A stretch of DNA of 60,796 nucleotides, filler included, from Stramenopiles sp. TOSAG23-6 (taxonomy: Eukaryota): the NCBI GenBank assembly GCA_900128565.1. It is 2 parts of 2 records of this genome, joined end to end, with 100 filler letters (N's around TTAATTAATTAA, not from the genome) between each part and the next. Parts side by side here need not be neighbours in the genome. Positions count along the whole stretch, not along the records: positions 1 to 30,570 come from LT635966.1; positions 30,671 to 60,796 come from LT635967.1. The stretch is one strand, 5' to 3'. A program made the translations under genes and the position numbers. Shown here in pieces: positions 6,278 to 55,972 of this stretch (the first letter of the stretch is position 1; each line of letters opens with the position of its first letter). Under the pieces are notes generated by a model. It was given only the letters and a program-made list of their open reading frames with translations. It was not told the DNA's origin and did no database searches.

Positions 6278-7206
6278 TTAGTCAAGAAAATCATTAGGCA
6301 TAGTAACTCGGGGACCAACACCAAATGGCCCTCCCTGTGGTTCTTCTAATCGAGTTAATGGTGATTCCATAAGTATTGCAGGACATTGGTTACAACATCC
6401 ATTTTTTAACGTCATTTTGAGTAAAACACCGTCACCTTCAAGGTTTTCGCCAGGAATATTTGAAATGGAATCTTCCGAATATGTTGATTCAAGAGCTTTG
6501 AAAGACATCCGTTTTTCTTTGTTCTTATTTTTAATAGTATTTTCAATTTCAAGGAAACTGCCAAACATATAATAGGAAAAATATTTAAAGAAAAAATCGT
6601 TAGGTACGAAATTTGGTACAAAAAAAAATACATTTTGGAATTCATGAAAAAAAAAAAAACGTACATGTGATCCACCGGACAAATTGTACAACACGTATAA
6701 ACATTCTTATTAATACTCAACTTTTTTGAAAATATGCCTGAAGTCTTTGATCCTATTGTATTACGTTGCATAGATTTTTGTTGGTTTTGTTGATTTCGTC
6801 TGTTCAAATGGTTCAAATGGTTCAAATGTCCTCGTCGAATATTTTCGTGTGTTTCAAGATATGATTCCATGCCACCTGCTTCAGGAGTCGAAAAGTTTTC
6901 AAAGCATACTGGACAACATGGTCGACTCCGTCTAAGCATCTCATGTGTTGGATTAGACCAGTCATATGGAGGAGAAGAATTCATTTCTAAAAATGAATAT
7001 GCGTTGTCATAGAACGTCTCTGGACAATATCGGCAACACGTCTGAAGAATTTCAAAGGCTTCTTTGCTTTGTGTTTTTTTTGAGTTGTCCCACCATTCAG
7101 ATTTTTTATTCAGCGTTATCATAGAATCTGATGGTATAATCAATAAAACAAATAACACATGTAATGTATAACATTCTAAACATGATGAGGATATTCTGAA
7201 ATGCAT
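6278..7206 (-). CDS. Paralogous secreted CCxxC-repeat protein (2 exons; GT-AT intron 6567-6664)
   Basis: Signal-like N-terminus; CCRYC, CCPVC, CCTIC and CCNQC motifs; SPLTRLEEPQGGPFG; removing 6567-6664 gives ...CPVDHM-FGSFLE in frame. Confidence 0.75.
6567..6664 (-). mobile_element. Introner-like GT-AT intron, copy 1 (98 nt)
   Basis: GTACGT...gtaccaaatttcgtacctaac...cctattatAT; removal restores frame. Confidence 0.8.
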
Positions 7207-7407
7207 TGAAACCAAATTTGATTTGATTTCAGATTTATTTCAGATTCAATTTGGATCATCCGGAAGATTCGAAAAATTCGAAATTTTTGAAATAATTATT
7301 GCGCATAAATTGAAATATCAGATTTTGAGATTCTCCAAAAAAAAACTTTAAGGTTGGTTGGTAGTGACGCGTGCAGAACGACAAGGCAGGTTTTACGTAT
7401 CCCTAAA

Positions 7408-7957
7408 ATGAGTCTATTAAAATGCGTTGTTCTATTTCTCTTTAGCATTATCTTGACTTCTGTTGAATGTACAGGGAAATTTTATTCTCCAGCAGATCAT
7501 AAATCTTCAGCCAAAGCTAAAAAGTATTCTCAGTGGAAACGAGCTAAAGCTAAAGGACAAATACCGTGTAAATTTGCGGCTTTTGGCCGTTGTAGGTTTG
7601 GAAGCAAGTGCCACTACAGCCACGATTAAATGCAAAAATAGAAAATGGAACAAGAATCGTTCACAGTTAGAAAAGACGATGAATAGGAAACAACAGTTTT
7701 ATAACGTTTTGTACGAAAAAGACGTAAAAGGGAGAATAGAAGAGCCAAACCTTGTTTTTGTCGAGGCTTTTGCGAATCGAAGAAGGTTCCAGTTTAAGAA
7801 ACGACTTTCTGAAGTAAATTACAGTGATAACTATGTCCCAATATTCCACAGATTTGATGGATTAAAGTTTACGCAATCTCTTGAAGATTATAGTCGAAAT
7901 TCTGCTTTATATGCGAAAAAACTTCGTCATAAAGATGCACCAAAGTTTGATTATTAA
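7408..7957 (+). CDS. Signal peptide + CCCH zinc-finger protein; probably continues by frameshift into the ORF ending at 7957
   Basis: Hydrophobic N-terminus MSLLKCVVLFLFSIILTSVEC; CKFAAFGRCRFGSKCHYSH (C-x7-C-x5-C-x3-H); stop at 7629 while another frame stays open to 7957. Confidence 0.5.
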
Positions 7958-8246
7958 TAATTAAATACCTATTGCACTTGTGTGATAAAAAATGATATAT
8001 TGTTTTTAAAGTAATATGATGGGAAAAATCTCGATTTAATTAATCTAGTTACTAGTATGCATTTTTTATAAATGAATTAAGCCTTATTTTTTTATGTGAG
8101 ACGATGCTTGCGTATACTCTACATTTTATGTTATATAAAATTTGTTTTTTTAAAAAAAACGAAGCTTGCGTATACTCTACATTTTATGTTATATAAAATT
8201 TGTTTTTTTAAGCCACTAGATTCTTACAAACTCCAGAAATCCAACA

Positions 8247-14173: not shown

Positions 14174-14199
14174 AATTTGTTTATTATAATATAGTACAT

Positions 14200-30570: not shown

Positions 30571-30670
30571 NNNNNNNNNNNNNNNNNNNNNNNNNNNNNN
30601 NNNNNNNNNNNNNNTTAATTAATTAANNNNNNNNNNNNNNNNNNNNNNNNNNNNNNNNNNNNNNNNNNNN
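30571..30670. other. Artificial contig-join spacer
   Basis: 44 N + TTAATTAATTAA (stops in all six frames) + 44 N, exactly 100 nt. Confidence 0.95.
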
Positions 30671-30712
30671 TTAGAAATTTCAAAATTTAAATGTGATTCC
30701 ACAGTTGAAAAA

Positions 30713-33700: not shown

Positions 33701-34440
33701 GGTCAACTATCAAATCTCGAACAATTGGACTTGGCAGAAAACGAACTATCTGGTTCAATACCAACGGAAATTGGTGGACTAAAAAAGCTCATAAAATTGA
33801 ACTTGTCAAAGAACAAACTATCTGGTACAATACCAAATGAAATTGGTCAACTAACAAACCTCGAAGAATTGGAATTGGACAACAACCAATTATCTGGTAC
33901 AATTCCAGAGGGAATTGGTCAACTGAAAAAGCTCAAACAATTGTGGTTGAACTACAACAATTTATCTGGTCCAATTCTAACATTTCTAAAACAAATGGTT
34001 GAACTAGTAAAAACACTAAAAGATAGGTGGAGCTTGAGAAATAATGAAAAACTCGAACTAACTCCAGAAGAAATTAAATGGTTTGAAAAACTACGAAAAC
34101 TATCTGGAGATGAAGAAGAAGATGACGAAGATGAAGATGAAGATGAAGATGAAGATGATGAAGGAGATGAAGAAAGATAACGCTAAAAAGTTATGGAAAA
34201 CTTGGCGGAGATGGCGGCGGAAGTCGCCAAGATGAAAAAGCTTGGAACATAAAAAAATGGGACCTAGAAACAGATATTTCTACATGGTATAAAGTCAACC
34301 GTAATGAAGAAGGAAATGTTACTACATTGGACTTGTCTAAGAACCAATTATCTGGTAAAATTCCAAAAGAGATAGGGAATTTAATAAATCTTAAAAGTTT
34401 GGACTTGGAAGGCAACAACCTATATGATACAATTCCGTAA
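30713..34440 (+). CDS. Mosaic LRR / histidine-phosphatase-like / Cys-rich / LRR / LRR gene, frameshifted in this sequence and possibly 5'-truncated
   Basis: LxxNxLSGxIPxEIGQL repeats; WVRQCESCAN, PLCTNTGKEQG, SSYLPRTFHTA, VSHGGYI and PNNT phosphatase-fold motifs; shifts at A18 (32176-32193), a 49-nt duplication (32759-32856) and near 34180. Confidence 0.7.
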
Positions 34441-34656: not shown

Positions 34657-36115
34657 TCATTTTATTTTTGCTGTTGAAATTTGGGAAACATTTTCAATCT
34701 TAGTGTTTAGCCACAATAGTCTCAGAGAGCATGCCGTTTCAATGACACCAAGTAAGTTAAGAACAAGTGGGAGTTGTTCATATGATAAAGATAAATTGTG
34801 ACCCCCTCCACCGGGTAGTACAAGCGTTCCTTGATCAATTGCTTGTCTTGAGTCTTCAGCAACAACACACCCACCAGAGATTTCTTCTTGAATATCATCT
34901 TGAACTGTATTACTTTCTACGTCTTGAACTGTATTACTTTCTACGTCAAGGTGATTATTACTTATTTTTGAGGCATTATTATTGCAAATAACACTATCAT
35001 CTTCCATACATTCGGTTGAAATGTCTTTAATATCTGATAAATTAAATTGAGTAAATTGAGTATCAGCGCTTGGAAATGAACTAGCAAAGGGAACATCAAT
35101 TGTTCCAACAGCATCAAACACTGTATCAAGCTCACGTGGGAGATGCACTTCTGAAGTTTCCTCGACAATCATTTGGGGTTTTGAAGTAGTTGTTTGTACT
35201 CGAATGTCAGGATTAGGGTTGGTGGTAGCATTTACTTCTTCAAAAAATCTCGTACTACTACCTTCAATATTGTTATTTTTATCAACCTCTGAAATGGTTT
35301 GATTATATTCTTGATTAGGGTTAGGGTTAGATATGGTTTGATTATATTCTTGATTATATTCTTGATTATATTCCACACCACACTTTAGTGGTTTGGTATT
35401 CATGTTGGCATTTGCTTGCATTCTATCTGCTAAGTCATTTATACATGTATTGTGAAAAATATTTCAAAAAAAATTAAATTAGGTACGAAATTTTCTATAA
35501 AAAAATAAATACATCTGCAATTCATCACGAAAACGAACACGTATGAAGACTACTTAAATGGCATACATTATCACCCAACCAACATAATAGATTTCGTGCA
35601 GACTCTTCACATAGATTTTGCTTTTCATCTATCTTTTTATATATAGCATTACCTGCAACATCAGATGTATGAGCAGAACCGTTGAAATTATAATAAGTAT
35701 CATTATTTTCGTACGTACCCCAATCTGAATAATTCCACAGAAGCTGATCTACTAGAGCGTTCGTTGGGCATAAACCATCATAATCTTTGGTAGTCGACTC
35801 AAATCTAACTTTTTTTTTCTTTTTTGATTTTTTGTGGAGTAATATCGATTTGACAATTTTGTTGTGGTATTCACCGGTGTGCGTTTTATTCGCTGTTTTA
35901 CGTTTCTTCTTTTGGGGTTGATCTTGAACGTTTTCGTCATTTTCATCAGTATTTTCAACGACTCGACATCTTTTGCGTGCTCGCACAGAGGAATCTGTTG
36001 TAGATTCATTTGATACATTTATCGAGGTATCAATAAATGAAGTATTTTCCACACTCTTTGAAGCCTTTGGATTCAGTTCACCTGGTGAAGTGTCAGTAAA
36101 CGATAAAGCACCCAT
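34657..36115 (-). CDS. Hypothetical low-complexity, probably nuclear protein (2 exons; GT-AT intron 35445-35538)
   Basis: Removing the intron gives ...HLSSLHTC-INDLADRMQANAN in frame; basic NLS-like stretches. Confidence 0.7.
35445..35538 (-). mobile_element. Introner-like GT-AT intron, copy 2 (94 nt)
   Basis: GTTCGT...aaatttcgtacctaat...ttcacaatacAT|GT. Confidence 0.8.
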
Positions 36116-37825: not shown

Positions 37826-37970
37826 GTTTTTAAATTTTCTTTTCATAGACAAAATTTCATACCTAACAAAAAGTGTACATTTTTTGATTCATTTTTTTGT
37901 ATTGGTTAACACTTTACTATTTTTTTTGATAAGTGTAAGGCACTATAATTTTCTTTTATTATAACAACAT

Positions 37971-38760: not shown

Positions 38761-38799
38761 TGTTTGTTTTAGTTTTGATATTTTTACAATTTTATGTTT

Positions 38800-39538: not shown

Positions 39539-39739
39539 ATGCTATTGCCAATTTTAAAAAAAGTAGTACCAGCCTGTTTCTTTGCTGGTGCAGGAATTGA
39601 ATTGTTTCTATACAAAGGAGGTTTTTACGAACACTATACAATGAAACAAGCTCTATTGAATTTAGAAGCAAAAGAAAAAGAAGCCACTTACTGGGCAAAT
39701 CGCGAAAAACAAAACGACGGTGCAGCTGAAGAAGAGTAA
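39539..39739 (+). CDS. Small mitochondrial membrane protein, SMIM4/UQCC5 (UPF0640)-like
   Basis: PACFFAGAGIELFLYKGGFYE..KQA pattern, 66 aa. Confidence 0.65.
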   Translation: MLLPILKKVVPACFFAGAGIELFLYKGGFYEHYTMKQALLNLEAKEKEATYWANREKQNDGAAEEE

Positions 39740-39854
39740 AGAATACTGACAGTGTGAAATGTCTATGCTGAAATAGAGAGACTATACGCTAGTTAAATGA
39801 AACAAAGATACATAATTATGATGAAATTACAGTGAATTAAATTTTGAATTTCAT

Positions 39855-42800
39855 TTATTCTTTAAAACCATTCCTATGGACGTTTTCTATTTCTTCTAAA
39901 TAAAGATCATTCGTTTTAGAATCGACAGCTTGATTTTCAGTGGATAATTGTTCTTTTGTGGTTGCTTCTTGTGCAACAAGGTTACCGATAGGCACGATTT
40001 TGGTAGATTTTTTCTTATTTGCTTTCAGCACATGAATCGTTCGATTCGAAAATATATCTAAAGAATCAAGATTAGATCTCTCTAATTTTGGCCATTTTCC
40101 AATTTTTGAAACGTAGTGTATACATTGTGAAAAATATTTTTTGTTTGTTGGAAAAATCGTTAGGTACAAAATTTCGTACGAAACAAAAATAAATTCGAAT
40201 TTCAAAAATTAAAACGTACATTGCTGCATCACCTTTAGTCCCATCAGCCTTATTTGGAATACCAAACATTGAAGCTGCGGCATGCGCTACTATTGTACAC
40301 GTAACTAATCTACTAAAATAGTATGAAAAGGTAGTATCAATCATGATTAATGTATTTTGGAAAAATATTTCAAAAAAAATTTGTTAGGTACAAAATTTCG
40401 TACGAAAAAAACAATTGAAATTTGAAAAAAAATAAAACATATATATAACCTTTGAGATAGAACCAAAGATGTTTTCCGTATCCAAAAACACCCCCTTGAA
40501 AACTTCAGTTTCGTCAAATATTGCCCAAAGTATGAAGCCAATTATGACAAATCCGATAGATAAATACTTCAAAACTATGTTTAGTTTCTTACTCAAAAAA
40601 TTCTTTACTACTTTTTGGAAAGTAAAAATTTCAACCCCAATGACAACAAAAGCAAAATACCAATCCGCGTAAGCTTGATAAAAGAAAATAACTAATGCGA
40701 CGTTAGGTAAAGCTGATACGGCGCCAGCTACAGCCCTGAGGAGTGATGCAAATTGATTCAGTGAGTGCAAGTCTCTATGATGCTTAAGAGCTTTTGAAGT
40801 TTTCACAACTTTATCAAATTCACCGACTCCTTTGACGATTCCTTGAGAAATTCCTTGTGCAAATGGTAGTAATTTAGCAAACACGCGAAACCCAACAAAT
40901 GTACCAATTACAAATTTAACTTTTTTCAGTCCAGAAATCATACGTAAAACTGTAGCTTCAGCAGATATTTTTACAGCTTTAAAACTAGACAGTTCACTGA
41001 TGGCTATTAAATCACTTATTTGGCTAGCAAATAGTTTTTCTGCTTTTTCGATATTTTCATCAAGTTTTGAACGCGCAGATTTTGCATTAGCATTCAGACC
41101 ATTTTTAGTTCTAGAGGTACTATCTTCAATAAAATTATATATTTCATCACTTGTTTTAATTACGTCGTCTAAAATCTGACTTTCTAGAGAATCCAAACTT
41201 GTAGTAGTACTTCGTTCAACCCCAATTATTCCTTGATGACGGCCTTCAAATGCATCCGCTATGAATCCCATGACACTTTGTGAATACATACCACATCGAC
41301 CCTGTGTGCTTTCGCCAATGTTGGTTCGCTCCTTGTTGTGATCTGTATTAGGATCATTAAGCCATACACACTTGGCTCTACACACATGATCTACATTATC
41401 CACTTCTGTAGAATCAGAATAAAACTGATTTACACAAGTTGAACAATCTCCATCTGGAACACAATCTCCATAATGTACGAGGCATACATGATCACCAAGA
41501 GTCCAGTATAGCATCAATTCATTGCGACAGTAATCACAAACACACTGAACATAATTGTATGCCGCAGTATCTGTATCAAGTACATTCTTTACAAAATTAT
41601 AGTCGTTATCCCATTTAGGATCATTTAAAGCAAGCTTCCCGTTATCTGAATTTGGCCAAGATACAACACATTTCTTTTCAACAAAATCTGTGTGGCACTT
41701 ATCATACTTGGATTTGTTTTGAATCTTTTCGTCATCCGTAAAAAAAAATATATAACCGTGTTCCCTTGAACAATACTCTCTACCTGAAAAATTTTCGTGA
41801 CAATTTTTCCCCCATGCTTTAGGCGGAAATCCAGCAGGGTTTCCAAGCCCTGGATTTCCTAGGGCTAATCCATCTTGTGTAGCTACCTTATATACAGTGT
41901 TCTCACACTGAGCTTTTGTAAATTTGTTGACGGATAGTGTTGTTTCCTGACCATGGCAATCATCCACCCATCCACCCTGTTGCAATATGTCTGAATAAGG
42001 CTCTTTTAAATCTCCGTGTACTCCAAAATATAAATCAGTTGCAATGTTACGAAGTTTTGAATTAATTTGTTTATGAGCAGTATCTGTTGTATCATCTACA
42101 GCCTTTGTCAAAGTTGATACAAGGACGTTGTTTGCATCACCAACTACTTGCATCAAATAAGAGGCTTGCTTAGATACATATTCTTCTAATTGTGACGATT
42201 CTGTAGTAACTTCTATTGCAGTATTTCCACTATCTTTTTGCATTAAATATTCCAATTCTTGAATATTGGGGATAAGTGATTGTGACGCAGCATCCAACAA
42301 TTCAATGAGATCTGTTCGAGTGTATTGCAATATTTTAGCTGCATTAAATATAAAGGGGTTTATTGCATCAGAATCAAATATAGCTTTTTTCTTTGGGTAA
42401 GTATTTCTAAAACGACCGACTGCGTCTGCTGCCTTGTCTAAAACACTAGCCAACATTGTCCAATTACCAGGTATATTCTGAAAGCCATTGAGATTCGCTG
42501 TCGCTATAGGTATTGCCTTCAATACAAGAGGAATCTCATGTCTTAAGTCCAATTTGTTAGTATCACCACGTTTATTTGCTTCAACCCAGGCTGGTCCTGA
42601 AAGCGTGAACTTTGCAGGATAACCTGTTTTGGGGTCATGAAGTTGAGCAAAAAAGACACAAGCCGCCTCCTTTTGTTCATCAGTTGGTAGAGCTTTAATT
42701 GCAGCTGCCAAATCTTGATGATTTTTATTTACTTTCTTCGCTTCACTTGCTTGAACTACACACTCCGGATCGGAATATCCTAAAGAAATACATGTGCTAT

Positions 42801-44311
42801 CAGCCATTTCATACGCTTCTCTATATTCGGTTGCACAATTGTTACATGCACAATCCCACATATCTTTGATAACTTTAAATTTGCTTGCTTGTTCTGCTCG
42901 CCATTTTGGATTTGATATCCAGTTGTAATCATCTATCCAATTAAGATAATTAGCATGATTTGAGAAAGATTCCCAGTATGTACCACAAACTGTACGACCA
43001 CCGGTATCATAACCAGGAAGTGCACATGTTTCGAAAGTTGCAATTGACGCGTTTGGGTCACTACTAGGTTTCCAAACTTTTTTATTGCATTTAAATTCTT
43101 CAACAACCATATAAGGTTTATCTTTTTCGGGTACATCTTGCCAAGTATCTGAATTATAGAATGATTTACAAATATCGGTGAAGTTCCTCGTCAGATCTGG
43201 AGTAGGTAATGAATTACGGCGAGTTGGAGTGTACAGATCGTCTGATAGAGCATCAAATGATAGTGCAAGACCATTAAGTACATTACCAATATGATCACTA
43301 ATGATTTTCATCGTGAACTCAGCTGTTGCATCTGGTCCGATTCCCTTCGAAAGGGCTAATTTATTTCCTGCATCACAGAATTTTACTATAGCGTCGCTAG
43401 GCATAAAATATTTATTCAATGCTTCAAATTGGCCAGCATCAGACTCCACATTTTTACAACTTTCACTTTCATTTACAACTGAAGCGCGCAAAGTCGTACT
43501 AGTATCAGGATTAGGTAAATTGATANTTGATAAAGGCTTCTTCAAATCCTTTAACTTCAGGATACATTTGATTTGCTTCACCTTGAAAATAATGTATTGT
43601 ACAGTTCCGTAAAAAATTAAAACTAGAGTCGAGATTTGATCCTGGTTCGATAAAAGGAGGATCAAATATCAGCGATACAGCTACTCCGCACGCTTTATCA
43701 GATATTTTATCATATGGTACAAATGTTGGTAGTTTGAAGTTGACAACGGTATAAATAAGTATTGGCACTATAATTTTGGCAAAGTACAAAAATGTCAAAA
43801 CTCTAACTCTTATTGGTTCCCAATCTTCATCAGTAGCTTGTCTATTTGATTTTCTATTATGATAGAAAGTTAGGACGCAAATTCCAATTGCGGGAAGAAT
43901 AACAGAAAATGTAAGCAGTCGATCAGTCACCATATTTAAGTTTGCAAACGGTAAGAGTGGGTCTCTGAAAACACAAGGCACCTTATTTATCCAAGAGCCT
44001 TCATTTGACCAGTTCGTTGATAAGCTAGCAAGTCCAACTAGAGTACACACAATTCCAAAATATGCCGATTTAAGTAACATACTGTCGGAATAGTGACGGA
44101 AATGATTTAAGTATGCAGCCCGCGATGACTTTTGTAGTTTCTCTTCATCTGTTTGTTCCTTGGTCGTACCAAATTTACCTACTATTTTAGCTGCTTCACT
44201 GGTAGTATTTTTTTTCTGTGATATATGTTTTTCAAGTTTGTCTACTTTACCCCAAACGTTCTTTGTAGCATCTGAGAGAAATTTATTTCCAACTTGATCT
44301 AAAGGATCCAT
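39855..44311 (-). CDS. Large multi-pass membrane protein with a Cys-rich extracellular region (3 exons)
   Basis: N-terminal and C-terminal TM clusters; ignoring the N at 43526 joins the two long ORFs; introns at 40350-40442 and 40120-40219. Confidence 0.72.
40120..40219 (-). mobile_element. Introner-like GT-AT intron, copy 3 (100 nt)
   Basis: AT|GTACGT...ttcgtacgaaattttgtacctaac...ttcacaatgtAT; removal gives GDAAI-HYVSK in frame. Confidence 0.78.
40350..40442 (-). mobile_element. Introner-like intron, copy 4, AT-AT variant (93 nt)
   Basis: ATATGTTTT...ttcgtacgaaattttgtacctaac...caaaatacAT; removal gives SKVIL-IMIDT; contains an in-frame stop. Confidence 0.7.
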
Positions 44312-44539: not shown

Positions 44540-45918
44540 TTATAGCTTCGAATCAAAACATTGATGATTCAGACATTCTAATATCAGAGCATTCGCTGTT
44601 CCACCACCTTCACATATTGCCTGAAGACCAAAGCGTTTGTTTCTTCTTTCCAGTTCACATAGCAAAGTCGTACAAATTTTTGTACCTGTAGCACCAAGCC
44701 TATATTGAAGAATATTTGTTTCAATGCAGAAAAATTATTAGGTATGAAATTATTCACAAAAGAAAAAAAAAATGTAGTGAAAAAAATGTGGAGTAAAAAA
44801 AATATTCAAAAAAAAAAAACTTAAATTTGTTAGGTACAAAATTGCGTAGTAAAAAAAACATACGGATGACCTAAAGACATTGCTCCACCATTAACATTTA
44901 ATTTGCTCATTTTACCTCCACATTCTTTTAGAAAGCATAACGGCACAGATGCAAAGGCTTCATTGACTTCGTACAGGTCAATCTCATCGATTGTCAAATT
45001 CGCTTTCTGTAGAACTAATCGTGTGGCTGGTATAGGTCCATAGAGCATCATGATGGGACAACTACCAACAACAGCAATTGAAACTATACGAGCTCTTGGT
45101 GAAAGATTTAGCTTTTTTAATCCTCTTTCGTTACAGACTAACATAGCTGAAGCGCCATCGGTTATTTGCGAGGCTGTAGCAGCCGTCAATTTGCCTGTTT
45201 CTTGAAGTAACGGAAGTTTTCGTAACTTTTCTTTTGTATTGGGCCAACGAATGCCTTCATCTTTACTAACCATTATTTCATTACCGTCTTTGTCAACACC
45301 AGCAATAGGAATTATTTCACGAACAAATCGACCTTCTCTAGTTGCTCGATGAGCTCTTTTATGTGATAGTAGGGCAAATTCTTCCATATTTTCACGGCTT
45401 AATTGTGCTTTTTCTGCTACTAGTTCTGCACCAGCAAACTGTGAAAACATCACATCTGGGTACCTTTCTTCAATCCCATCACTATTAAATGGAAAACCAT
45501 GTCCTGCTTTCATCCCATCAGTAATATTTGCACCAATTGGCACAAGTGTCATACACTCTACTCCCCCTGCGATGATAACGTCTTGTGTGCCCGACATTAC
45601 AGCTTGTACTGCAAAATGCAAAGCCTGCTGTGAGGAGCCACACTGTCGGTCAACAGTTGTACCTGGCACTGACTCTGGAAGGTTTGAGGAAAGAATGATA
45701 TTACGGGCTAGATTACCAGCCTGGCTTCCGACTTGAGATACACAACCAAAAATACAATCGTCAATCATATCAGCACGTTCGTTTGTCAAATTATTACGAG
45801 CTAGTAGAGCATTGACCACAACGGCACCAAGATCAGCTGGATGCCACTCTCGAAGACTACCCTGGCGTTTTCCACCAGGTGTGCGACAGCAGTCCACAAT
45901 GTACGCTGTGAATGGCAT
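44540..45918 (-). CDS. Thiolase (acetyl-CoA acyltransferase), peroxisomal PTS1 -SKL, one GT-AG intron at 44700-44863
   Basis: DRQCGSSQQA, NEAFA, GHP|LGATG, CEGGG; ends DSKL*. Confidence 0.93.
44700..44863 (-). mobile_element. GT-AG intron (164 nt) containing two introner-family cores
   Basis: GTATGT...aattttgtacctaac...aatttcatacctaat...caatatAG. Confidence 0.75.
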
Positions 45919-46115
45919 TTTATGTAAATGTAGTCAATTTCAATAGTTAACAGAATATTCAATATAAATTTTCGGTATTAAATTTTCCGGAATATTTGAT
46001 TCATTTGTCGTTTCATTTGTTTTTTCCGATTTCGTGTAAAAATGCCCGGGGCACTCTCATCATCAACCTACAGACTACAGTATGTATTACTAGTGTTTAC
46101 ATAAGAAGTAGGAGG

Positions 46116-48105
46116 ATGTCATCGTCAGCCCGTCGATCAGATTTTAAGCGCAATTGCTTTAATCATACAGAAAAACGCCGATCGTATGCTACAAATCTCC
46201 GTAAGAATAAGCGTACACAAAAGATTTTAGCTAAACGGCGGAAACAAAACCCGAAGAATTCCGATGGATCTTTGCCTTTCGATACCCCCTCAGAGACTAA
46301 CGTTGTCGCTGCACTCTCACGTCTTCGGTACGCAATAAATACTTCAGATGTATCACCTACTGATGCCTTGAAATATTTACGTCGTTCATTATCACTAACA
46401 GATTTAAGTGATGATTTCATTTCTTTAGCTGTAGCCAACGATGCATGTCGTCTTTTTGGTGAAATAATAGGTGCTAATTTGAGTTCCTCAACAACACAAA
46501 CATCCAAACGAATATTCGAAGATAATGATATATACGAAGCTCTATGGTGTCTCGGCAATATTGCTTCTGGAACGAAAGAGCAAGCAAAACATGTTCTACC
46601 AGCTCTTCCTGTTGTTTGTCAGTTTCTTTTAAGTAATAATATTTTATTACAAGAGCAAGCTACCTGGGTAGTAGGTAACGTGAGTGCAGACGACAGTTGG
46701 CGTGCACAACTTCATGCTGCCGGTGTTATTGAATCTGTTTCTAATTTATTAAATGGTTTAACGAGTGAAATCATCAAAACTGCTGCGTGGAGTATATCCA
46801 ACTTAGCAAGAGGTCGCCACACACCCGTTGAACCATTTTTTAATTCTAAGTGTAGTACGAAACTCATTCAACTTTTAAAACGTAAAATTATAAACCCAAA
46901 TTCTACATTGAATGTATCTACAGCACGCACTGATAGTAACCACAATATGATGTTTGATACACCTGTCATTGAGGAAGCTCTTTGGGCGCTAAGTTATCTA
47001 TCTGCAAGAAATAATACGTTCACTCAAAAATTACTTGACGATGGTTTTCTATCGGGTTTATTCGGTATTCTTGTAGATATTGATATGACATCTACATTGA
47101 AGATCTGCACACCTCTTTTTCGATGTTTTGGTAATATTTTGGCGGGGCCAAATTCTTGGGTAGATGTTGTTCTCTTTGGTCATGAAAGTCGAAATACAAT
47201 AGTGAGAGGTAATTTATCTATATTCGTAAAAAACGTATTTCGTGTATTAAAAGTTCATATTGAAAATAGGTCTGTGACTAAGGAAATATGTTGGGTCTTG
47301 TCTAATATTAGTAGTGGCACTCCTCATCATTGCGAGGCTTTATTTTCAGAACCAGGTTTAGTTGAACAACTTATAGCTATTTTCTTAGATTCGGGATTTG
47401 ATGTTCGGAAAGAGGCCGGAACTGTAATTTTAGGTATTGCAGCTGCTTCTAACATTTCATTTCAAAAAATTTATTCAAAAGACATTTTAGTTTCATTTCT
47501 TAGATTTAGTGAGGCACCTGATTATGATGGGAAAAAGTTATGTCTAAATTATGTTGATCTTGTTTTGAGTCATGTACGTTTTCACATCATGAATTTATTC
47601 ATTTTTTTTGTATGAAAATTTCGTACCTAACGATTTTTTTCATGTTTTTTTTTTCACAATACATGGTGGTAACTATATTCGAGAGGTAGAAGAGGCGAAC
47701 GCGATTGAGTTACTAGAATTGATCCAATATGGGACTGATAGATGTTTATCTAAACATGCTCAATGGCTTGTTGATACTTATTTTGGTGAAGACTATGATG
47801 ATGGAGAAGAAGAATATTCTATGGACCATTCAATAGATGAAACTTTAAAAAAACCAAGTTTTCAAAATGCAGTGACACATGGTACCTTTCTTCCATTTGG
47901 AGATAATAAAAAACATTCGGATAATAAACCACGCCCTTCTGTTACACCTGCTTGGATGAATCATCAGGAAAATAATCCACCCATTAGCTTGGAGAAAAAC
48001 GTGTTGGATGAAAAATCACGAAATATACATGAAAATAATACATTAGAACCTTTACCCGGTCAACAATCACTGTTTGACTTTGGGTTTACATCAGATAAAA
48101 GATAG
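46116..48105 (+). CDS. Divergent importin-alpha-like ARM-repeat protein (2 exons; GT-AT intron 47574-47664)
   Basis: IBB-like RR...LRKNKR...AKRR; EALWCLGNIASG, EQATWVVGNV, TAAWSISNL, EALWALSYL, KEICWVLSNI, DVRKEA. Confidence 0.88.
47574..47664 (+). mobile_element. Introner-like GT-AT intron, copy 5 (91 nt)
   Basis: CAT|GTACGT...aaatttcgtacctaac...ttcacaatacAT|GGT; removal gives LVLSH-GGNYIREVEE. Confidence 0.82.
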
Positions 48106-48408
48106 CGCATCGCTTTATCATACAAAAAGATAGGGATGACATAAACAGTACAGCAAGGGATGACATAAAAAGTAGAGCAAGGGATGACATAAAAAGTAGG
48201 TACTACTTTGACAGTAAGTCACATTAATTTTTGACTCTTTATAAACACGAAATATGAGTTTAAAGTAGTATATATTAAATTTGGTTCATTCGTCTCTTTT
48301 AATTACAAAACAACATTGCAACGATACATCTAAAATCTTAAATAAAACGTGCCCATAGAATGAGAAATCATACTATCGACATCTACTGCCATAGATTTAG
48401 TTTCTCGT

Positions 48409-49158
48409 TTACCAAGCATCATCATCGTCACCGCCGAACATGTTTCCAACTTCGACTTCTTCTTCTTCCTCCTCTTCTTCTTCTTCGACTTCCTCTTCAG
48501 CTGCAGCGCCACCAGCGCCACCAGCGCCGCCGCCGCCACCGCCGCCACCGCCGGCAACTAAGCGTTCTTTTCCAGCTTCCAAAAGTTCTTCAATGCTTTT
48601 ACCTGCCATCTTTTCCATAAAAAATGAGAGAGCGTTAGCATCTACTTCAATGCCACTTTTGGTAAGAAGTTCAGAAACTTCTTCAGCAGTTGGCTGAGCC
48701 TTTCCGCCAAGAGCGAGGAGCATGTATGCAGATGTGTACTATAATGTGTAAATATAGAATACACGTGTCAATTTTAGTAATGATTTAACGAGTAATGTTG
48801 GGCACAAGTGAACAGTCATGGAAATAAAGGGAAACTCGCTTGTTGAAAAAGAAACGATAAACAAAAAGTGTTTTAAAACTATAAAAAACAATTGTTAACA
48901 ACACAAAAAGCATTTTAACATAAGGTATAACTATATGAAACACGTGATGAATACTTCATTGTCATAGCGATTCGTTAAAACAATATTTTGTCAAAATCAT
49001 ACAACGCGTGGTAGTTACCATAATGAAAGGATGCTCAAAATCTCTTAGACTTCTCTGCAGATACTTCCAAAAGAGCTATTCCAACATGTTTCAACATCAG
49101 TATTCATTTTAAGTTATGCAGTCTGTTTGTTATACTTGGAGTTTTAACTTACCTTCAT
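48409..49158 (-). CDS. RPLP2: 60S acidic ribosomal protein P2 (canonical GT-AG intron 48739-49152)
   Basis: MK|YTSAYMLLALGG...GKSIEELL..G..L, acidic tail; donor GTAAGT and acceptor TATAG. Confidence 0.92.
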
Positions 49159-49547
49159 TGTGATTAGTTTTACTGAGAAGAATGAATAAACGAACGCACG
49201 AGCGGAGGCGGACCAACTCAACAATTTTGTGTTGTAGTCAGCAAAATATGGCGATGGTTGACAGAAACATAACTTGGACAAACCTGCTTTTCTACATTTT
49301 TTTCCATTTCAATGATTTCATTCAAATTCAATGATCCAAGTTCCCTATTTGAATAAAAAATGGCATAACCAATTAATCAATTGGGGGATTCAAAGTGAAG
49401 AGCATTTTTTTATTAAATATTGAATATAAAATTAGAATATCTTTTATTTTCAGACCAAAAATCAAGGACATCTAAATTTAGGGTAATAGATCTATTATTT
49501 CCTCCCTCTCCTTTCAAATAAGACACAAATTTGGAGAAATATCTTAT

Positions 49548-50639
49548 TCATGAGTGTTTCTTACCGTCGCTATACTCTTCCAGAGTCCAGTTACATTTCT
49601 CCAGCGTCTGTTTGTGAACATTGTCTGATATATTGTGTTGAGTAGAAAACTCACGCAGTAATTTTTTTTCCGTGGGCTGCACCACACTATCTACAAGAGC
49701 ACTTTGCATCATCATGTAGTAGTTCATTATTGGTTCCGCCTTATCCTTTTTAAGCATTTCGTCTACAACACTGTTGAGACAGAGCTTCACTTCTTCGCCT
49801 TCCAATATATCCCCACCTTGTTTAATTGCCGACCGCATTTTCTCATGTGTGAAAGTTATGTATCGGACTTTGTCGTATTTCTCGCACACTTTGGCAGTCA
49901 TTTCATATTTATCTGTAGCTTTTGAAATTTCAGTGAAACCACAAGAACCAATTAAACTCCCAGGTCCAACAGAACATGCATATTCATCATCTAAAAAGAG
50001 ATCAACTTCCCCTGAGGTTATAAGTATCAATATTTTGGCATCTTCACCTTGTTTGGCAATAACTGCTCCAGTAGGTGCACTTGTCCATTCGTTGTAATTA
50101 TTCATAAGTATTTTGAATGATTGTAAACTCATCATACCAGATAGATGGTTATATAGGTCCAACTCATCTTTTGTAAATTTCACTTCACCTGACATGATGA
50201 TCTTGTAAATGGCGGTTGAATTTAGGCATATATAAATAGTACTCCAAAAGACAGCAACTTTCCAGGCAGGACTTGTGAAGAATTGGTAAACGATACTACA
50301 TGTACTTCCACAGATGGCCATAATCCGAAGTTGCAACACGTCTGAACATGAATATTGACAGAAGCCAATAAAAAACCCTAAATTACCGATGTAAAATGAA
50401 TTTCTCTTAATGAAAGCGGCAACGGGAGATTCCTTTTTTACAGCAGCTTCACTTGCTGTATTACTCATGAAACGTCTCCACGGCCGAAATGATGTTGGTG
50501 CTCTTTTAGAAAACGTGCTTATAACACGACGTTGCAAATAATTTTGTGTGTTTAATGCTGGGATACTTCTAGAGTAGTGAGTTACAGCAGGTTGGAAATT
50601 GTTATGGAACTTAAACCTATTTAAACATAATCGAAACAT
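49548..50639 (-). CDS. Popeye/cNMP-binding-domain membrane protein with a mitochondrial-type presequence
   Basis: DVLQLRIMAI, VFWSTIYICLN, FTKDELDLY, LILITSGEV, GSLIG. Confidence 0.72.
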   Translation of the reverse strand: MFRLCLNRFKFHNNFQPAVTHYSRSIPALNTQNYLQRRVISTFSKRAPTSFRPWRRFMSNTASEAAVKKESPVAAFIKRNSFYIGNLGFFIGFCQYSCSDVLQLRIMAICGSTCSIVYQFFTSPAWKVAVFWSTIYICLNSTAIYKIIMSGEVKFTKDELDLYNHLSGMMSLQSFKILMNNYNEWTSAPTGAVIAKQGEDAKILILITSGEVDLFLDDEYACSVGPGSLIGSCGFTEISKATDKYEMTAKVCEKYDKVRYITFTHEKMRSAIKQGGDILEGEEVKLCLNSVVDEMLKKDKAEPIMNYYMMMQSALVDSVVQPTEKKLLREFSTQHNISDNVHKQTLEKCNWTLEEYSDGKKHS

Positions 50640-51002
50640 CGTAAAGTATGGAAAAATAATTGGAAAGGGTACGTAGACAAGATATAGGAAATGCAACGGT
50701 ATCATCATGCAAAATATTTTAAAACCGCATGGTACCGGGTATCGTAAATTCGATCGCGCGGTCAGACGTCATCGGATCGGACTCGACGCGTCTTTTTGGT
50801 GGTACAACACAACCAAAATTAGTCAACCAAAATATAACAACAACGCCCACATTTTTACACTCATAGTTGTAAAGGGCTTCATTACAGGAAAAATTATATG
50901 CTAAAATTATACGACTTCACTTAAATCGTTATTTAGATTTTACTTGTATTCACCCTAGAATAAAGTGGGAAGAAAGCATTCACATAAAAGAACAAGTGCA
51001 AA

Positions 51003-52103
51003 ATGACTCCCAATCGTGAAAGCAAAACGTTTCTAGACATGGATAAAAATAAGGATGGTTTTGTGTCACTAGATGAATATTTACCGCACCGGAAATCTTT
51101 AGCGGAAGATATAAAAACATATCACAAACCTGATGTACAATTTTCCCGGACTTTTGCCGGTCAGGCCATCTGCGCGGGTGTAGCAGGTATATGCCAAATG
51201 TACAGTGGAGGAATAGTTTTAGATACAGTATCTACGCGCTTACAGGCTGGTTTTGGAATTGGCCAAGCACTTTGGGGTATCCGTGGATATAAAAGTACTA
51301 ATCCAACATCACTGATATCAAGAGCAGCTGCTGTACATGGTGTCTCGAAGACGCAACTATGTCTCTCTCTTCTAAAAAGGTCGAATTTATACGCAGGCAT
51401 TGGTGTAGTTGTTCGAGGTCGCTTCCCCTATTTAACGTTAAACTTAGGTACATATGCTCAAGCGGAACAATGGGTATTAGGGATTCGGGGTGGTGTCTAT
51501 CGTGAAAAGACACTAGGAGAAGATCTATTTTGTATTGTCAGTAGCACTTCGGTAGGCGCAGCTGCTATAACTGCCATTGAATGTCCAAAAATTTTAGATC
51601 AGTTGAGGGGCGGACAAGTTGATAAGGCAAATAGAAGCACTGTTTTGGGGGTAATTAAAAAATTCGGGATACGTCGTTTAATGCAAGGCTATGAGGCTAC
51701 ATTTCTTAGAGAGTTTTGTTTCAATTGTGCACTTTTGGGCTCTCCTGGAATTTCCAAAAGATTACGATCTAATTTTATCGAGCCTAATCTTGAAACTTCT
51801 GCAGTCGCACGTTTCTTTGATGGAAAAGAAATGTTTTTCACTAGCATGGCAATGGGATTTCCTATAGGTTTTATTACCAATGTTCCTGATCAAATGAAGA
51901 CAAATATACAAAAAGGACAATTTCGAAATATACTTGAAGCGATCAAGTGGCAATCAACTCAAGGTGGGGGTATCAGAGGATTGTTGGGTAAAGCTGCAGT
52001 GTATCGATCTCTGTATATTTGTCATGGTGTCGTTTTCCTCAATTTTGCAAGGACACGTGTTGAAACACTACTTAACAATAGTCGTTTAGACGAGTTATTT
52101 TAA
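51003..52103 (+). CDS. Mitochondrial carrier family protein with an N-terminal EF-hand
   Basis: DKNKDGFVSLDE EF-hand; LDTVSTRLQ, IECPKI and PDQMKTNIQ carrier signatures. Confidence 0.8.
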   Translation: MTPNRESKTFLDMDKNKDGFVSLDEYLPHRKSLAEDIKTYHKPDVQFSRTFAGQAICAGVAGICQMYSGGIVLDTVSTRLQAGFGIGQALWGIRGYKSTNPTSLISRAAAVHGVSKTQLCLSLLKRSNLYAGIGVVVRGRFPYLTLNLGTYAQAEQWVLGIRGGVYREKTLGEDLFCIVSSTSVGAAAITAIECPKILDQLRGGQVDKANRSTVLGVIKKFGIRRLMQGYEATFLREFCFNCALLGSPGISKRLRSNFIEPNLETSAVARFFDGKEMFFTSMAMGFPIGFITNVPDQMKTNIQKGQFRNILEAIKWQSTQGGGIRGLLGKAAVYRSLYICHGVVFLNFARTRVETLLNNSRLDELF

Positions 52104-52304
52104 TTTTTTTTTTTTAAATTGTTTGATAAAATGTATTCAAAAGTGAAAAGTCAATAAAAATAGGTTATTCGTCATATTTCGTGTTTTTGCGCTTGATCGT
52201 TTTTAGAATCTTCTGGGTTTCTTCTTTGGCCAAGTCAACTGGTAAAACTACAAAAATTGAAGTACAAAATATCTAATGTTTTTCAGTTTCTAGGGTAAAC
52301 TTCA

Positions 52305-53009
52305 ATGTGTATAGATTGTGCAAGGAAAGCTATACAACATCTAATAGCTTGCTTCCCACCAGGTCCAGGAGGTTGGCGCATTTGTCTACTTGACCACGAC
52401 GACCACGTACATATTAGAGTCCACGTTGCTGGTGCAGGTGGAACTGTTGAGTTTAGTGAATGGGTTGATTTGGTGGCACCTTGGGCTGATATATATCCAA
52501 TGCTTCCGGAAAATACCTTCGTTCATATCCATCATGATTTAAAGTCGAATGGTTTACATAGTAATGTAATTGATCAAATTGAAAAGTTAGTGTGGGATGG
52601 TAGGAAAGATGGAAATATCTTTTGTAGCATCTGCAGAGATACTTTTACACTGGGTGAAGATATCTTAGTACTACCATGTAAACATAGATATCATGTAGAA
52701 TGTATTAAAACGTGGTTGAAGCGGAAAGATACATGCCCTGTATGTCGATTATGTGTCACGAGCGTAGAAATAGAGAAAAATAAAGAACTCCAAAATGACC
52801 TCAGACAGTTGAGAAGACGTGATGAGAAAAGTCTCAATAATAATGGTCATATACAATCTTCAAATAGTTCTTTGTTAACAGTATCAGAAAGAACACAAAG
52901 AACACAACCAACATCAATCACAGGCGCATATTCTGTTATAAGTGAAATTCATGCTGAAAATAGTCTCTCCCCCAGTCAAAGGATTAATAAGAAGTGTGTA
53001 ATATCATAA
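52305..53009 (+). CDS. RING-H2 E3 ubiquitin ligase
   Basis: CSIC...LPCKHRYHVECIKTWL...CPVCR. Confidence 0.88.
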   Translation: MCIDCARKAIQHLIACFPPGPGGWRICLLDHDDHVHIRVHVAGAGGTVEFSEWVDLVAPWADIYPMLPENTFVHIHHDLKSNGLHSNVIDQIEKLVWDGRKDGNIFCSICRDTFTLGEDILVLPCKHRYHVECIKTWLKRKDTCPVCRLCVTSVEIEKNKELQNDLRQLRRRDEKSLNNNGHIQSSNSSLLTVSERTQRTQPTSITGAYSVISEIHAENSLSPSQRINKKCVIS

Positions 53010-53113
53010 TAATAATAATATCATAATAATAACTCAAAGATTTCAATAGTAGTAAATATGTATATATTATAGGTGTAAAATGCTCAATTACGATTTTTAT
53101 TTATATTCTAATT

Positions 53114-55972
53114 TCAGCCATCGTTAATGACATTATCATTATCAATAAAACATCCCTCAATATCCTGAATAATATTATTCTCCTTCAAGTGTCTAAAAAA
53201 TAACATTGCATTTTCACTCTCATTTCTATTTGTTTCATATCGATTATATTCCAAACGTACATATATTGTGAAAAAGTATATTATTTTAAATTGTTAGGTA
53301 CGAAATTTCGTACGAAAAAAAAATTTAGATTAAAAATTCAATTTTGAAAACGTACGCTTAATAGCCAATTATGAACTTCGTCGTAAATAATTTCAACTTT
53401 TGGGAGAATTCCTACCCAAAGAGACGAATCAATTTCTTGCCATTGAACCTTTTTGTGTTTTTTATTAATTTCATGATTGGTCTCAATACACTTCACTATT
53501 TTTTTATCAATCAATGTCTTTAATGCTGTTGTGTCAATCTTTTTATTTACAGTAACTCGTAAAATTGTATTTCCAGAAGATTTTGCAAAAAGTCGTTTCA
53601 TAATTCGTTGTACGATGACACAGACTATTAGTAACCAGACCATATTTAAAGCAAACATGTATTGTGAAAAAATATTTCAAAAAAAATCGTTAGGTACAAA
53701 ATTTCGTATGAAAAATAAATAAATTTGAAATTCACGATGAAAACAAACCATAGACCTGGAATTCGAATAATATCATTGACAAACATATCATCAACCCACT
53801 TTGGCACAGTAATATTCAGTGTTCCACCGGATAGTCTGTCGATTATATCAAATGCAAAAGACCCCGCTACAATCATTTGAAGTACTTGCAGTGAAATTGA
53901 AGTTTTTTCTTTTACGGTTGATGTTTCGACAAGAAATTTGGTATGTATTTTGGAAAAATATTTCAAAACAAAAAAACGTTTTTTTATTAGGTACAAAATT
54001 TCGTACCAAAAAAAAAAACGAATTTGAAAAAAAATAAAACATACATTATTCTCCACATCCGAAAAAATGGCTTCCAACTGTTTCGTATTGATTACATCAG
54101 TCATCTGCTGAAGTGTCAACAATTGATGTTGCTCCCCTTCAATTAATTTTAATAAATCAGTACATCGTAAACATGTATTGTAAAAAAAATTAAATTCGAA
54201 ATTTGTTAGGTACAAGATTTCGTACGAAAAAAAAATTGAAATTCATAATGAAAACGTACCTATATCGCGTTTCATTTCGGCAGGTTCCAATACTTTAAAT
54301 AATCTTTTACCATTTAAATCTTCTGGTATATCTGGAATAGTAAGATCTTGGAGAGAGTCCGACAAATATTCCAAAATTTCCCTTAATAGAATTACATCAC
54401 ATGAAGCAGAGTTTAATTTGTCTCTAATTATCCCGACATTATTTGGATCTCTTTGGTAATTGCCAATCAATTCGCGGATGTTCGACATTAAGTCATCAAG
54501 TACAAAAGTTCGGATGAAAAAATTGCGGATAAAGATTTCCCGTGTGAGAAGTGATAAATATAAAAACAATATATTTTCATGTTGCATACAGTGTGGACCA
54601 CACAATAACACTCCATCTTGTCCCATCATAATGACATCTTTGTCGCCAAGGTCATGACATGCGCGTAAATCACCGAGAATTTGCTTCAACTCATTTTCTA
54701 AATCACCTTTATCCATATAATCCTCTCCGTCAATTTTTGGTGAAATTTTTTCTGCAACAATGCAATTGAATTTATTACGAGTTTGAGACTCACCCAAGAA
54801 AAGCATATTTAAAAGTTCACTTTGATATTGTGATAACAAATCATTCATTATTCGACTTGAATCTTGATGCAAATCAACCAACAATCTTGATAATAAGTCC
54901 AACGAAATATCATCTTTTTTACGGTCTAAAATAGCTTCTACAAATATACCATACACGATAGTGCCATCTACATTTAAGTGCATACCAAAGTTTTCTACTT
55001 GGACAATATCATCATTTTCCGGGTAATTTATTTCTGCTTCAAAATTAATAAATTGAACAAAGTCGTAATCTAATATTTTAACATCAGTAAGACCTGTAGG
55101 AACTTCGAATTGTGTGTCTGTAGGATTTTCATCAATAAGTGACGTAAAAAGTCCACCCTTACAGCGATCCATGGCCCCTAGGCGTTCATTTAAAGCAACA
55201 ATTTGATTGGCTCCAAATGGTATCCACTCCCCTACCATTACCATAACTTGTCCTATGACAATAGCTTCATCTAGTTCGTCTCGTATGCCGCTTGAACCCA
55301 TTGCGGACTCTTCAGCTCTATGGGAGTTTGTTGTAAATGGCATCATAAAACGACTCTCCTTAAAGGTGAGGAAACATAGGAGACATCTTCAGTTTCGGTT
55401 ACATTACTTTCTTTTCTTTCGCCTGATTCAGTATGTAACACAAAAGAACGTTTACTGTTGTTGTATTCTATTTTAAATATAGTACCATCCGTAGAGTGAA
55501 GAAACTTATCAACTTCATTCTTTACTTGTGTGGGTAGAATTTTAATAAATGCTATTCCCTTTTCAGACGCTTGAAACGCCGTGACAGGCTGAAAGTCTTC
55601 TGTTGAGAGTTTTAAACCATTTACCATATTGCCTTCTCGTAAGTCATCAATGACAGATTTACCCTCCTGAGAGACGTTCATCCATAATCTTCGAGAAACA
55701 CCATGATGTGATACAAGACAAGAAACAGGTGCATAATCTAAGTCAATGACACCTGCAACTATTCCTTCATACAGAAGAACAGAGAGAGGAATTTGTCGAA
55801 TCCATGTTTCTTCATCTGTTGCCAACTGTGCTGCATTTGCATATTTTGAAATCAAATAGAGGATTCGACAGTGTTCCATACCCCACTCTTCGTCTGGGTC
55901 GTCGTCCTCAGAAAGAAATTGGTTTGGTGGTTTCCATTTAATTCCTGGATTTTGTTCCTTTGATTCTGGCAT
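53114..55972 (-). CDS. Conserved-looking hypothetical protein with two C-terminal TM helices; four GT-AT introns and one frameshift near 55360
   Basis: Removing 54173-54259, 53943-54044, 53657-53748 and 53261-53355 yields one frame to TGA at 53114-53116. Confidence 0.75.
53261..53355 (-). mobile_element. Introner-like GT-AT intron, copy 6 (95 nt)
   Basis: GTACGTTT...ttcgtacgaaatttcgtacctaac...ttcacaatatAT|GTACGTTT; removal gives NWLLS-VRLEY. Confidence 0.82.
53657..53748 (-). mobile_element. Introner-like GT-AT intron, copy 7 (92 nt)
   Basis: GTTTGT...tacgaaattttgtacctaac...ttcacaatacAT|GTTTG; removal gives IPGLW-FALNM. Confidence 0.82.
53943..54044 (-). mobile_element. Introner-like GT-AT intron, copy 8 (102 nt, in frame and stop-free)
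   Basis: AT|GTATGT...gtacgaaattttgtacctaat...caaaatacAT; removal gives DVENN-TKFLVE. Confidence 0.8.
54173..54259 (-). mobile_element. Introner-like GT-AT intron, copy 9 (87 nt)
   Basis: AG|GTACGT...ttcgtacgaaatcttgtacctaac...acaatacAT|GT; removal gives KRDIG-LRCTDL. Confidence 0.82.

Follow-up and report, generated by a model that had tools for sequence, protein, structure and literature searches.

The terminal AG of introns is among the most constant signals in eukaryotic gene expression, and the DNA analyzed here, a 60,796-base stretch from the genome assembly of Stramenopiles sp. TOSAG23-6 (GCA_900128565.1; hereafter, the window), raises the question of whether a whole family of introns can be spliced without it. 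A preliminary description of the window had reported nine homologous inserts of 87–102 nucleotides (nt) in five genes and had read them as a recently expanded, transposon-derived introner family, spliced at an acceptor that ends in AT. All nine inserts were present in the five genes at the positions listed below, and what had been called their occurrence on both contigs corresponds to the two sides of a run of N at 30571–30670. When a profile built from the nine inserts was run over the window with nhmmer, exactly these nine were returned as full-length matches (E 2e-18 to 1e-10). Our preferred explanation, which we regard as probable on the sequence comparisons that follow, is that the copies are U2-like spliceosomal introns of an introner-like family that would be spliced at a YAU acceptor.

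c1, 6567..6664, minus strand: 98 nt, GTACGTTTT...CCTATTATAT, phase 2, in gene A
c2, 35445..35538, minus strand: 94 nt, GTTCGTTTT...CACAATACAT, phase 1, in gene B
c3, 40120..40219, minus strand: 100 nt, GTACGTTTT...CACAATGTAT, phase 2, near the 3' end of gene C
c4, 40350..40442, minus strand: 93 nt, ATATGTTTT...CAAAATACAT, in gene C; the only copy with A at position 1
c5, 47574..47664, plus strand: 91 nt, GTACGTTTT...CACAATACAT, phase 0, in gene D
c6, 53261..53355, minus strand: 95 nt, GTACGTTTT...CACAATATAT, phase 0, in gene E
c7, 53657..53748, minus strand: 92 nt, GTTTGTTTT...CACAATACAT, phase 2, in gene E
c8, 53943..54044, minus strand: 102 nt, GTATGTTTT...CAAAATACAT, phase 0, in gene E; an in-frame intron that lacks stop codons
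c9, 54173..54259, minus strand: 87 nt, GTACGTTTT...TACAATACAT, phase 1, in gene E

Eight copies lie on the minus strand and one on the plus strand, and all nine are sense to the host open reading frame (ORF), as had been described. The start is GT in eight copies and AT in one (c4); all nine end in YAT, six of them in CAT and three in TAT. A search of metagenome contigs with a 19-nt core pattern matched four loci, three of which (L001, L002, and L004) agree with the short core only, and the fourth is a true full copy:

L003, positions 2475-2578 of an independent 3.2-kb metagenome contig, minus strand: tenth copy, starting GTATGTTTT and ending CACAATACAT

Removal of this tenth copy likewise joins an open frame, with no AG between its branch motif and its 3' end. 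Since it stands on an independent contig, the terminal T is not a local error of assembly or sequence. The window and the L003 contig together amount to 64 kb of sequence of the organism, and this is the scope of the family counts given below. A pattern that combines the branch motif with the 3' box matched 7/9 of the window copies and 0/100 shuffles, and it gave 0 matches in prokaryote genome contigs and 0 in viral contigs.

Read 5' to 3' in the sense direction, the parts follow one another in the same order in every copy: a GTAYGTTTT start (ATATGTTTT in c4), a short (T)GAATT/CAAATT block, a T run, a palindromic core, CGTACGAAATTTYGTAC, that runs into CTAAC/CTAAT, a T-rich tail, and a 3' box, TTTTYMMAATAYAT. 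The 5' site is GTAYGTTTT or GTTYGTTTT in 9/10 copies and CTAAC/T is present in 10/10; the tail after this branch motif measures 32–43 nt and contains 14–21 T, and the distance from the branch A to the intron end is 33–44 nt. The copies thus have the GTRNGT-like 5' site, the CTRAY motif, and the pyrimidine tract of U2-type introns, but a terminal YAG is found in 0/10 and YAT in 10/10. Pairwise identity averages 73.8% (range 62–90%), compared with 35.9 ± 0.7% for composition-matched shuffles put through the same alignment. Identity reaches 90% between c4 and c8, from different genes, and the L003 copy is 82% identical to each, so that the three form a subfamily. Given 74% identity against 36% in shuffles, and 82–90% within the subfamily, the copies share more than splicing signals. 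The same range of identities suggests a family that is moderately old rather than recent; for copies that differ by 10–38%, "recently expanded" was an overstatement.

Partial nhmmer matches in the window lie inside a thiolase intron, described below, and at 37835–37880 (plus strand), where an isolated family-like core (AAAATTTCATACCTAAC) stands in an ORF-poor stretch (36.2–39.7 kb) and could be what is left of a copy, or else an intron belonging to a gene that escaped recognition. A broad regular-expression scan for additional introns was too noisy for use. Rfam returned 0 known RNA families in the window, and the idea of a small nucleolar RNA housed in the introns was dropped on that result, together with a C-box-like TGATGA confined to c2 and a D box in 0 copies.

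Predicted excision and the choice of the 3' end

The host genes differ widely in how much they can say about where an insert would be cut out.

Host gene A: carries c1; no known family and no known relatives
Host gene B: carries c2; low-complexity protein, no known relatives
Host gene C, 39700..43668, minus strand: large protein whose C-terminal transmembrane region is conserved; carries c3 and c4
Host gene D: carries c5; divergent importin-alpha-like ARM protein
Host gene E, 53000..55388, minus strand: conserved membrane-associated protein family without a name; carries c6–c9

Removal at the listed coordinates leaves one open frame across the junction in 9/9 window copies, as had been claimed, and in L003 as well (10/10), with phases 0, 1, and 2 all occurring. 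After removal, the ORFs of genes C and E are open for 1206 and 632 codons, respectively. For gene E, we aligned the GT..AT-spliced product with 37 homologues (33–53% identity; a Pfam domain in 0/37), and no gap appeared at any of the four junctions. In the most conserved block of the protein, NVExNT|KFLVDAS, c8 separates the N from the T, and the codon divided by c7, TG|G, restores the conserved W of LW|FALNM once joined; the junctions at c6 (WLLS|VRLE) and c9 (DI-G-LRC) are gapless too, both with exact spacing. The C-terminal region of gene C was matched by 27 representatives, 21 of which were compared by BLASTP, and 14 segments were aligned, with identities of ~23–40%. In 14/14 of these segments the c4 junction is gapless, and at c3 the conserved (I/L/V)-x-Y motif of the homologues begins at the junction, whose 5' side is a loop of variable length. 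When gene D was aligned with 40 of 108 importin-alpha homologues, the exon downstream of c5 fell in the predicted frame onto the last ARM repeat, the junction itself lying in a variable loop; the best named matches of this protein are from stramenopiles, e.g., Aphanomyces and diatoms, at only ~25–30% identity. The protein collection contained no same-species peptide spanning a spliced junction, near-length matches reaching 30% identity at best for gene D and 53% for gene E, for which a shorter one stood at 44%.

Together, these alignments show that excision exact to the base would be needed to keep the conserved proteins. Since the copies have diverged by 10–38% while the host ORFs stay open, the host genes appear to have been under selection since the insertions. 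Of the YAT acceptor put forward in the preliminary description, what stands is the predicted exact removal at c4 and c6–c9, the 3' boundary at c3, and the frame at c5.

A relative of gene E from metagenome contigs (P0118/P0119, ~47% identity) reads through a 21-codon (63-nt) GT...CAG-like insertion of its own, which starts V-R-V, ends P-Q, and lies ~1 nt from the position of c9 (window ~54173-54260). The closeness may be coincidental, or it may reflect either a site favored for insertion or an old intron site common to both that has slid by 1 nt. P0138/P0141 also read through an insertion, at a different site.

Between CTAAC/CTAAT and the point at which coding resumes, no AG occurs in any of the ten copies, which extends to L003 what had been reported for the nine. 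Alternative registers that would yield the same mRNA exist: c6 can slide by 0 to +8, c7 by 0 to +5, and c9 and c2 by up to +2; leftward slides of 2 to 4 are open to c1, c3, c4, c5, c8, and L003. An AG end is reached in none of these registers, and GT..AT (AT..AT in c4) is the only one common to all, in agreement with the earlier count of eight GT starts and one AT. Two details of that account need correcting. Four copies (c3, c4, c5, and c8), not five, are unable to slide two bases right; and five window copies can indeed slide two left, but only c4, c5, and c8 reach AT-AC by doing so, c1 giving AT-AT and c3 AT-GT. With L003 included, an AT-AC reading is possible in only four copies.

The first downstream AG is in frame in 3/10 copies, which is the chance rate, and we rejected it as the acceptor; for c9, whose in-frame AG lies 36 nt downstream, its use is contradicted because homologues keep the 12 residues that would be deleted. 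An upstream YAT in c7 was rejected as well: it would add 15 in-frame nt, insert five residues, and lose the conserved W. The preliminary description had also considered a structure-assisted route. RNAalifold, applied to the ten copies, gave nothing beyond a weak hairpin of 6 bp, located in the core, at -3.1 kcal/mol and not backed by compensatory changes, and predicted no pairing of the 5' with the 3' intron ends, which leaves such a route unsupported. What is constant around the 3' site is the 3' box and the spacing of 33–44 nt from the branch A.

Normal GT-AG introns had been reported from the same DNA in two genes, RPLP2 and thiolase, and both were confirmed.

RPLP2 intron, 49152..48739, minus strand: 414 nt, GTAAGT...TTATAG
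Thiolase intron, 44863..44700, minus strand: 164 nt, GTATGTTTT...TTCAATATAG; related to the family, ends in AG

The RPLP2 intron has none of the extended family motifs. In the thiolase gene, the junction GHP|LGATG matches the thiolase C-terminal domain, and the intron contains two core-like units, ...AATTTTGTACCTAAC and ...AATTTCATACCTAAT. Its end, ...CAATATAG, aligns with ...CAATACAT of the family, and ...TTCAATATAG stands where the family has ...CACAATACAT, so that an ordinary acceptor G takes the place of the family's last T. The tail that follows the branch motif is also of similar length, 37 nt in the thiolase intron and 35 nt in that of RPLP2, compared with the 32–43 nt of the family.

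The thiolase intron looks like a composite of family material: its first unit would end ...TTTTACTCCACAT, a second 3'-box-like sequence, TTTTTTCACTACAT, comes next, and the second core and the AG end follow. An AAG 9 nt past the first branch motif is evidently unused. In RPLP2, the start context gacaATGAAG occurs twice on the minus strand, once in exon 1 before GTAAGT (49153–49163) and again ~200 nt into the intron (48951–48960), which suggests a small internal duplication.

We therefore weighed the following scheme for an intron-poor marine protist whose best protein matches are stramenopile. Each copy would offer a strong yeast-like 5' splice site, GUAYGUUUU; a palindromic core, CGUACGAAAUUUYGUAC, would lead straight into the branch motif CUAAC/U and then into a U-rich, AG-free tract; and the copy would close with the conserved 3' box UUUUYMMAAUAYAU. 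A U2-type spliceosome would branch at the CUAAC adenosine and ligate the exons after the terminal YAU, which, relative to a normal YAG, would keep Y(-3) and A(-2) and change only the last base, U for G. The YAU used would always be the one that closes the 3' box, as far from the branch motif as is the AG of the two ordinary introns of the window. Because it is so constant in place, we infer that the 3' site would be set by position and context, with Y(-3) and A(-2) read as usual and the last base read loosely. Together, the sequence comparisons support an introner-like, U2-like intron family with a putative non-AG acceptor, in a genome that also uses AG.

Several observations weigh against this scheme. 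Another YAT lies 14–31 nt upstream of the one used in 9/10 copies, and the thiolase and RPLP2 introns each have an unused TAT 2 nt before their AG; given these extra upstream YATs and unused TATs, YAT alone cannot define the 3' site. The junctions of c1 and c2, in genes A and B with no known relatives, are placed by frame alone, and GT-AG alternatives are possible for both, through an in-frame AG 9 nt downstream in c1, at the cost of 3 codons, and 15 nt downstream in c2. c4 begins with A, and ordinary U2-type introns with an A at position 1 fail to be spliced; by its gapless alignment, c4 would still have to be cut out exactly. An interaction between the first and last bases of introns is known, and one may speculate that a U at the last position could pair with either G or A at the first. 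Finally, it is protein conservation from which both splicing and its site would follow.

Alternative explanations of the inserts

The alternative that survives best, although we consider it unlikely, is that the inserts are removed from RNA as GT..AT introns by a divergent minor (U12-like) or otherwise dedicated spliceosome. The termini would suit it: GU-AU is among the rare termini of U12-type introns (PMC8199999), whose 3' site is apparently read by position and not through an obligatory AG. As for the 5' site, GTATGTTTT, found in c8 and L003, matches 7/9 positions of the U12 consensus GTATCCTTT, but positions +5/+6 are GT instead of the diagnostic U12 CC in 10/10 copies, and RTATCCTT is absent. 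The branch motif presents a similar picture, in that CCTAAC resembles CCTTAAC, but it is a textbook U2-type CTRAY with no TCCTT, and TCCTTRAC near the 3' end is absent. The branch A of the family lies 33–44 nt from the 3' end, and that of U12 introns usually ~10–26 nt from it. A preprint on Physarum, in its accessible part, allows U12 branch distances of up to ~45 nt and describes U12-type introns that can expand en masse, possibly via a transposon (bioRxiv 10.1101/2020.10.12.336362). Against a dedicated machinery stand the GT-AG introns of the window, which have similar 5' sites and branch distances, and the 0 Rfam hits to small nuclear RNA genes in the window.

A second alternative, that these are nine unrelated introns which look alike because the genome needs long, rigid splicing signals, strikes us as quite improbable. 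Conservation is highest at the 5' site, in the branch region, and in the 3' box, with T-rich filler elsewhere, and the thiolase intron has the branch-region motif too. However, the RPLP2 intron manages without the extended motifs, and the common core, a palindromic block of 24 nt, greatly exceeds a branch consensus in length. Subfamily variants that recur across different genes (c4/c8 at 90%, and L003 at 82% to both) are a further difficulty. So are the homologous proteins, mostly metagenomic, that span the positions of c4, c6, c7, and c8 without an insertion; if those proteins represent uninterrupted ORFs, as we assume, these relatives would have no intron there.

It is very unlikely, in our view, that the inserts are left in place or removed imprecisely. 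That would make them small mobile elements with a sense bias, seated in gene copies that are dying or redundant, and the restored frames would reflect only recent insertion. Such a view draws on the part that protein conservation alone plays in the case for splicing, on the A that opens c4, on the four copies within 1.1 kb of gene E, and on other frame problems in the window, at 55343–55388 and at an A18 run near 32180. Yet the exons of genes C and E, open over 1206 and 632 codons, align to their homologues (33–53% identity for E, ~23–40% for the C-terminal region of C) with conserved residues rebuilt at the junctions, and 10/10 copies are sense with an intact 5' site and branch motif; over the span in which the copies diverged by 10–38%, neutral decay would have broken the frames.

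Removal from DNA, in the manner of ciliate internal eliminated sequences, with an expressed genome free of inserts, would suit short inserts that interrupt coding sequence, need precise removal, and have direct repeats of 2–8 nt over both boundaries in 10/10 copies, but it is scarcely credible: the boundaries are AT^GT-like and not TA-TA, terminal inverted repeats are lacking, excision from DNA would have no use for the strict sense orientation (ciliate elements have no strand preference) or for the conserved GTAYGT and CTAAC signals, the best protein matches come from stramenopiles and not ciliates, and copies are present both in the window assembly and on an independent metagenome contig.

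Possible spread of the family and its known counterparts

If the copies are U2-like introns, as we prefer to read them, their distribution bears on how they may have spread. Within the 64 kb, all ten lie in coding sequence in the sense orientation, and intergenic or antisense copies were not encountered. Their relative position in the host ORF ranges from 0.42 to 0.92 (mean 0.73) and is thus 3'-biased, although this is not a clean test for clustered copies, four of which lie within 1.1 kb of gene E and two within 330 nt of gene C. Terminal inverted repeats were found in none of the copies. Direct repeats of 2–8 nt overlap both boundaries in 10/10 copies, and in 20,000 random placements, 0 reached either at least 2 nt in all copies or the observed repeat sum of 37. 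A simple target duplication of 2 or 4 bp was rejected, as the copies cannot all be fitted with one and the same element boundary. The sequence of the empty sites, A (7/10) T (7/10) ^ G (7/10) T (5/10), mimics the intron's own ends.

Two copies have particularly clear repeats. In c6, an 8-nt direct repeat, GTACGTTT, opens both the intron and the exon that follows it; c7 has one of 5 nt (GTTTG), and its 5' site deviates from the family consensus at precisely the positions that agree with the exon.

Since the distribution is sense-only, coding-only, and 3'-biased, an RNA-mediated route is favored; for ten copies in 64 kb, such a route, or selection for spliceable sites, may fit better than a cut-and-paste transposon. 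The transposon origin suggested earlier is unproven, with no terminal inverted repeats and all copies sense and in coding sequence. A more complete scheme, which we put forward tentatively as one possibility, is that the major spliceosome accepts a terminal U, that the first and last bases pair (G·U in nine copies, A-U in c4), that the position of the 3' box sets the site, and that the family spreads through RNA, by reverse splicing or cDNA. Spread through RNA would account for copies that are all sense, all coding, and 3'-biased (mean 0.73), as well as for AT^GT sites that mimic the intron ends.

Sense-only placement is also a property of the Micromonas and fungal introner families. Introners of Micromonas and Aureococcus and the introner-like elements (ILEs) of fungi resemble the present family in being short, near-identical introns with their own splice signals at unrelated positions in unrelated genes, and they form lineage-specific families (PMC9860276, PMC12130899). 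Whole-length similarity at non-homologous positions in unrelated genes is likewise what we found here (nine copies in five genes, plus L003). In contrast, the introner families described so far have canonical termini, and this one ends in AT in 10/10 copies. It also differs in having no terminal inverted repeats, no fixed-length target duplication, and no intergenic or antisense copy seen; compared with DNA-transposon introners of the Huff/Gozashti type, its ends are unpaired, its boundary repeats vary from 2 to 8 nt, and 10/10 copies in the 64 kb are sense and coding. According to the accessible part of its text, a 2025 introner survey admitted GT, GC, GA, or AT as 5' termini and AG or AC as 3' termini, and dropped families whose sites were unfamiliar unless they were RNA-supported, so that a GT-AT family would be missed by design (PMC12130899). 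We found no description of a GT-AT introner family in the literature on GT-AT/GU-AU introns, introners, and non-AG acceptors in protists; the accessible portions of the single-cell genome literature on uncultured stramenopiles do not mention non-canonical introns, although the supplements might hold intron tables.

Non-AG acceptors are a feature of other systems as well. In the tunicate Fritillaria borealis, 5' ends are reportedly mostly non-GT, and an intron-derived probe with an AU 3' site is said to be purine-rich upstream. The accessible part of the report on this animal gives 95% of introns as breaking the GT/AG rule, links non-AG ends to duplicated, divergent U2AF subunits, and describes that probe; removal is of the U2 type with an AU/AC 3' end, a likeness to the family here, for which U2-type removal is presumed (PMC13326754). 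The present family differs in its textbook 5' site, branch motif, and U-rich tract, only the last base departing from the norm, and in its protist host. Amoebophrya, another marine protist, also has repeated intron families with non-GT-AG ends; in the accessible text, their boundary direct repeats are 3–5 nt (here, 2–8 nt in 10/10 copies), inverted repeats of 8–20 nt pair their ends, and no terminal dinucleotides are preferred (PMC7789003). The family here, unlike those elements, has no end pairing, and its termini are fixed as GT and AT around standard internal signals; nor does it have the complementary, stem-forming ends known from Amoebophrya and euglenids. Human U2-dependent introns offer a further likeness in that TG serves as an alternative 3' splice site in 36 genes, according to the accessible part of that study (PMC2374985). 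Those sites are alternative and keep the last G, whereas here a non-AG end would be the only acceptor of a whole family.

With every other U2-type signal kept and U in place of the final G, such a family would serve as a natural experiment on 3' splice-site reading in the second catalytic step. It would touch on the pairing of the first and last intron bases and on the roles of U2AF1, Prp8, Slu7, and Prp18, and it would bear on the ability of new introns to spread when they lack a canonical acceptor. Such introns would escape gene finders and introner surveys that require AG or AC, their host genes would be called broken, and the predicted proteomes of uncultured marine protists may be systematically truncated as a result.

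Genes and other features of the window

The window (35.7% G+C, with N runs at 3012–3026 and 30571–30670 and a few single Ns) is eukaryotic and gene-dense, and most of its genes are a single long ORF. Among those identified are an H+-pyrophosphatase, a Cse1/CAS exportin, an ISWI-like SNF2 ATPase, a DDX21-like helicase with a GUCT domain, an Hsp70, and the thiolase, besides others. The public sequencing runs that contain the stretch are marine. Seven public RNA runs contain 6–18% of the sampled words of 45900–55899, shares that are no evidence of expression.

Genes E and C are each overlapped by an upstream ORF in another frame, at 55343–55388 and 43511–43668, respectively (both minus strand), with no recognisable intron; the overlap at gene C contains a single N at 43526. 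These overlaps may be assembly frameshifts or unrecognised short introns. An LRR gene at 30623–34180 (plus strand) is spread over three overlapping frames, split by an A18 run (32177–32194) and by a 48-nt perfect tandem duplication (32760–32860). The run and the duplication being the cause, introns were ruled out for the ORF overlaps of this gene, and both features are likely errors of assembly or amplification.

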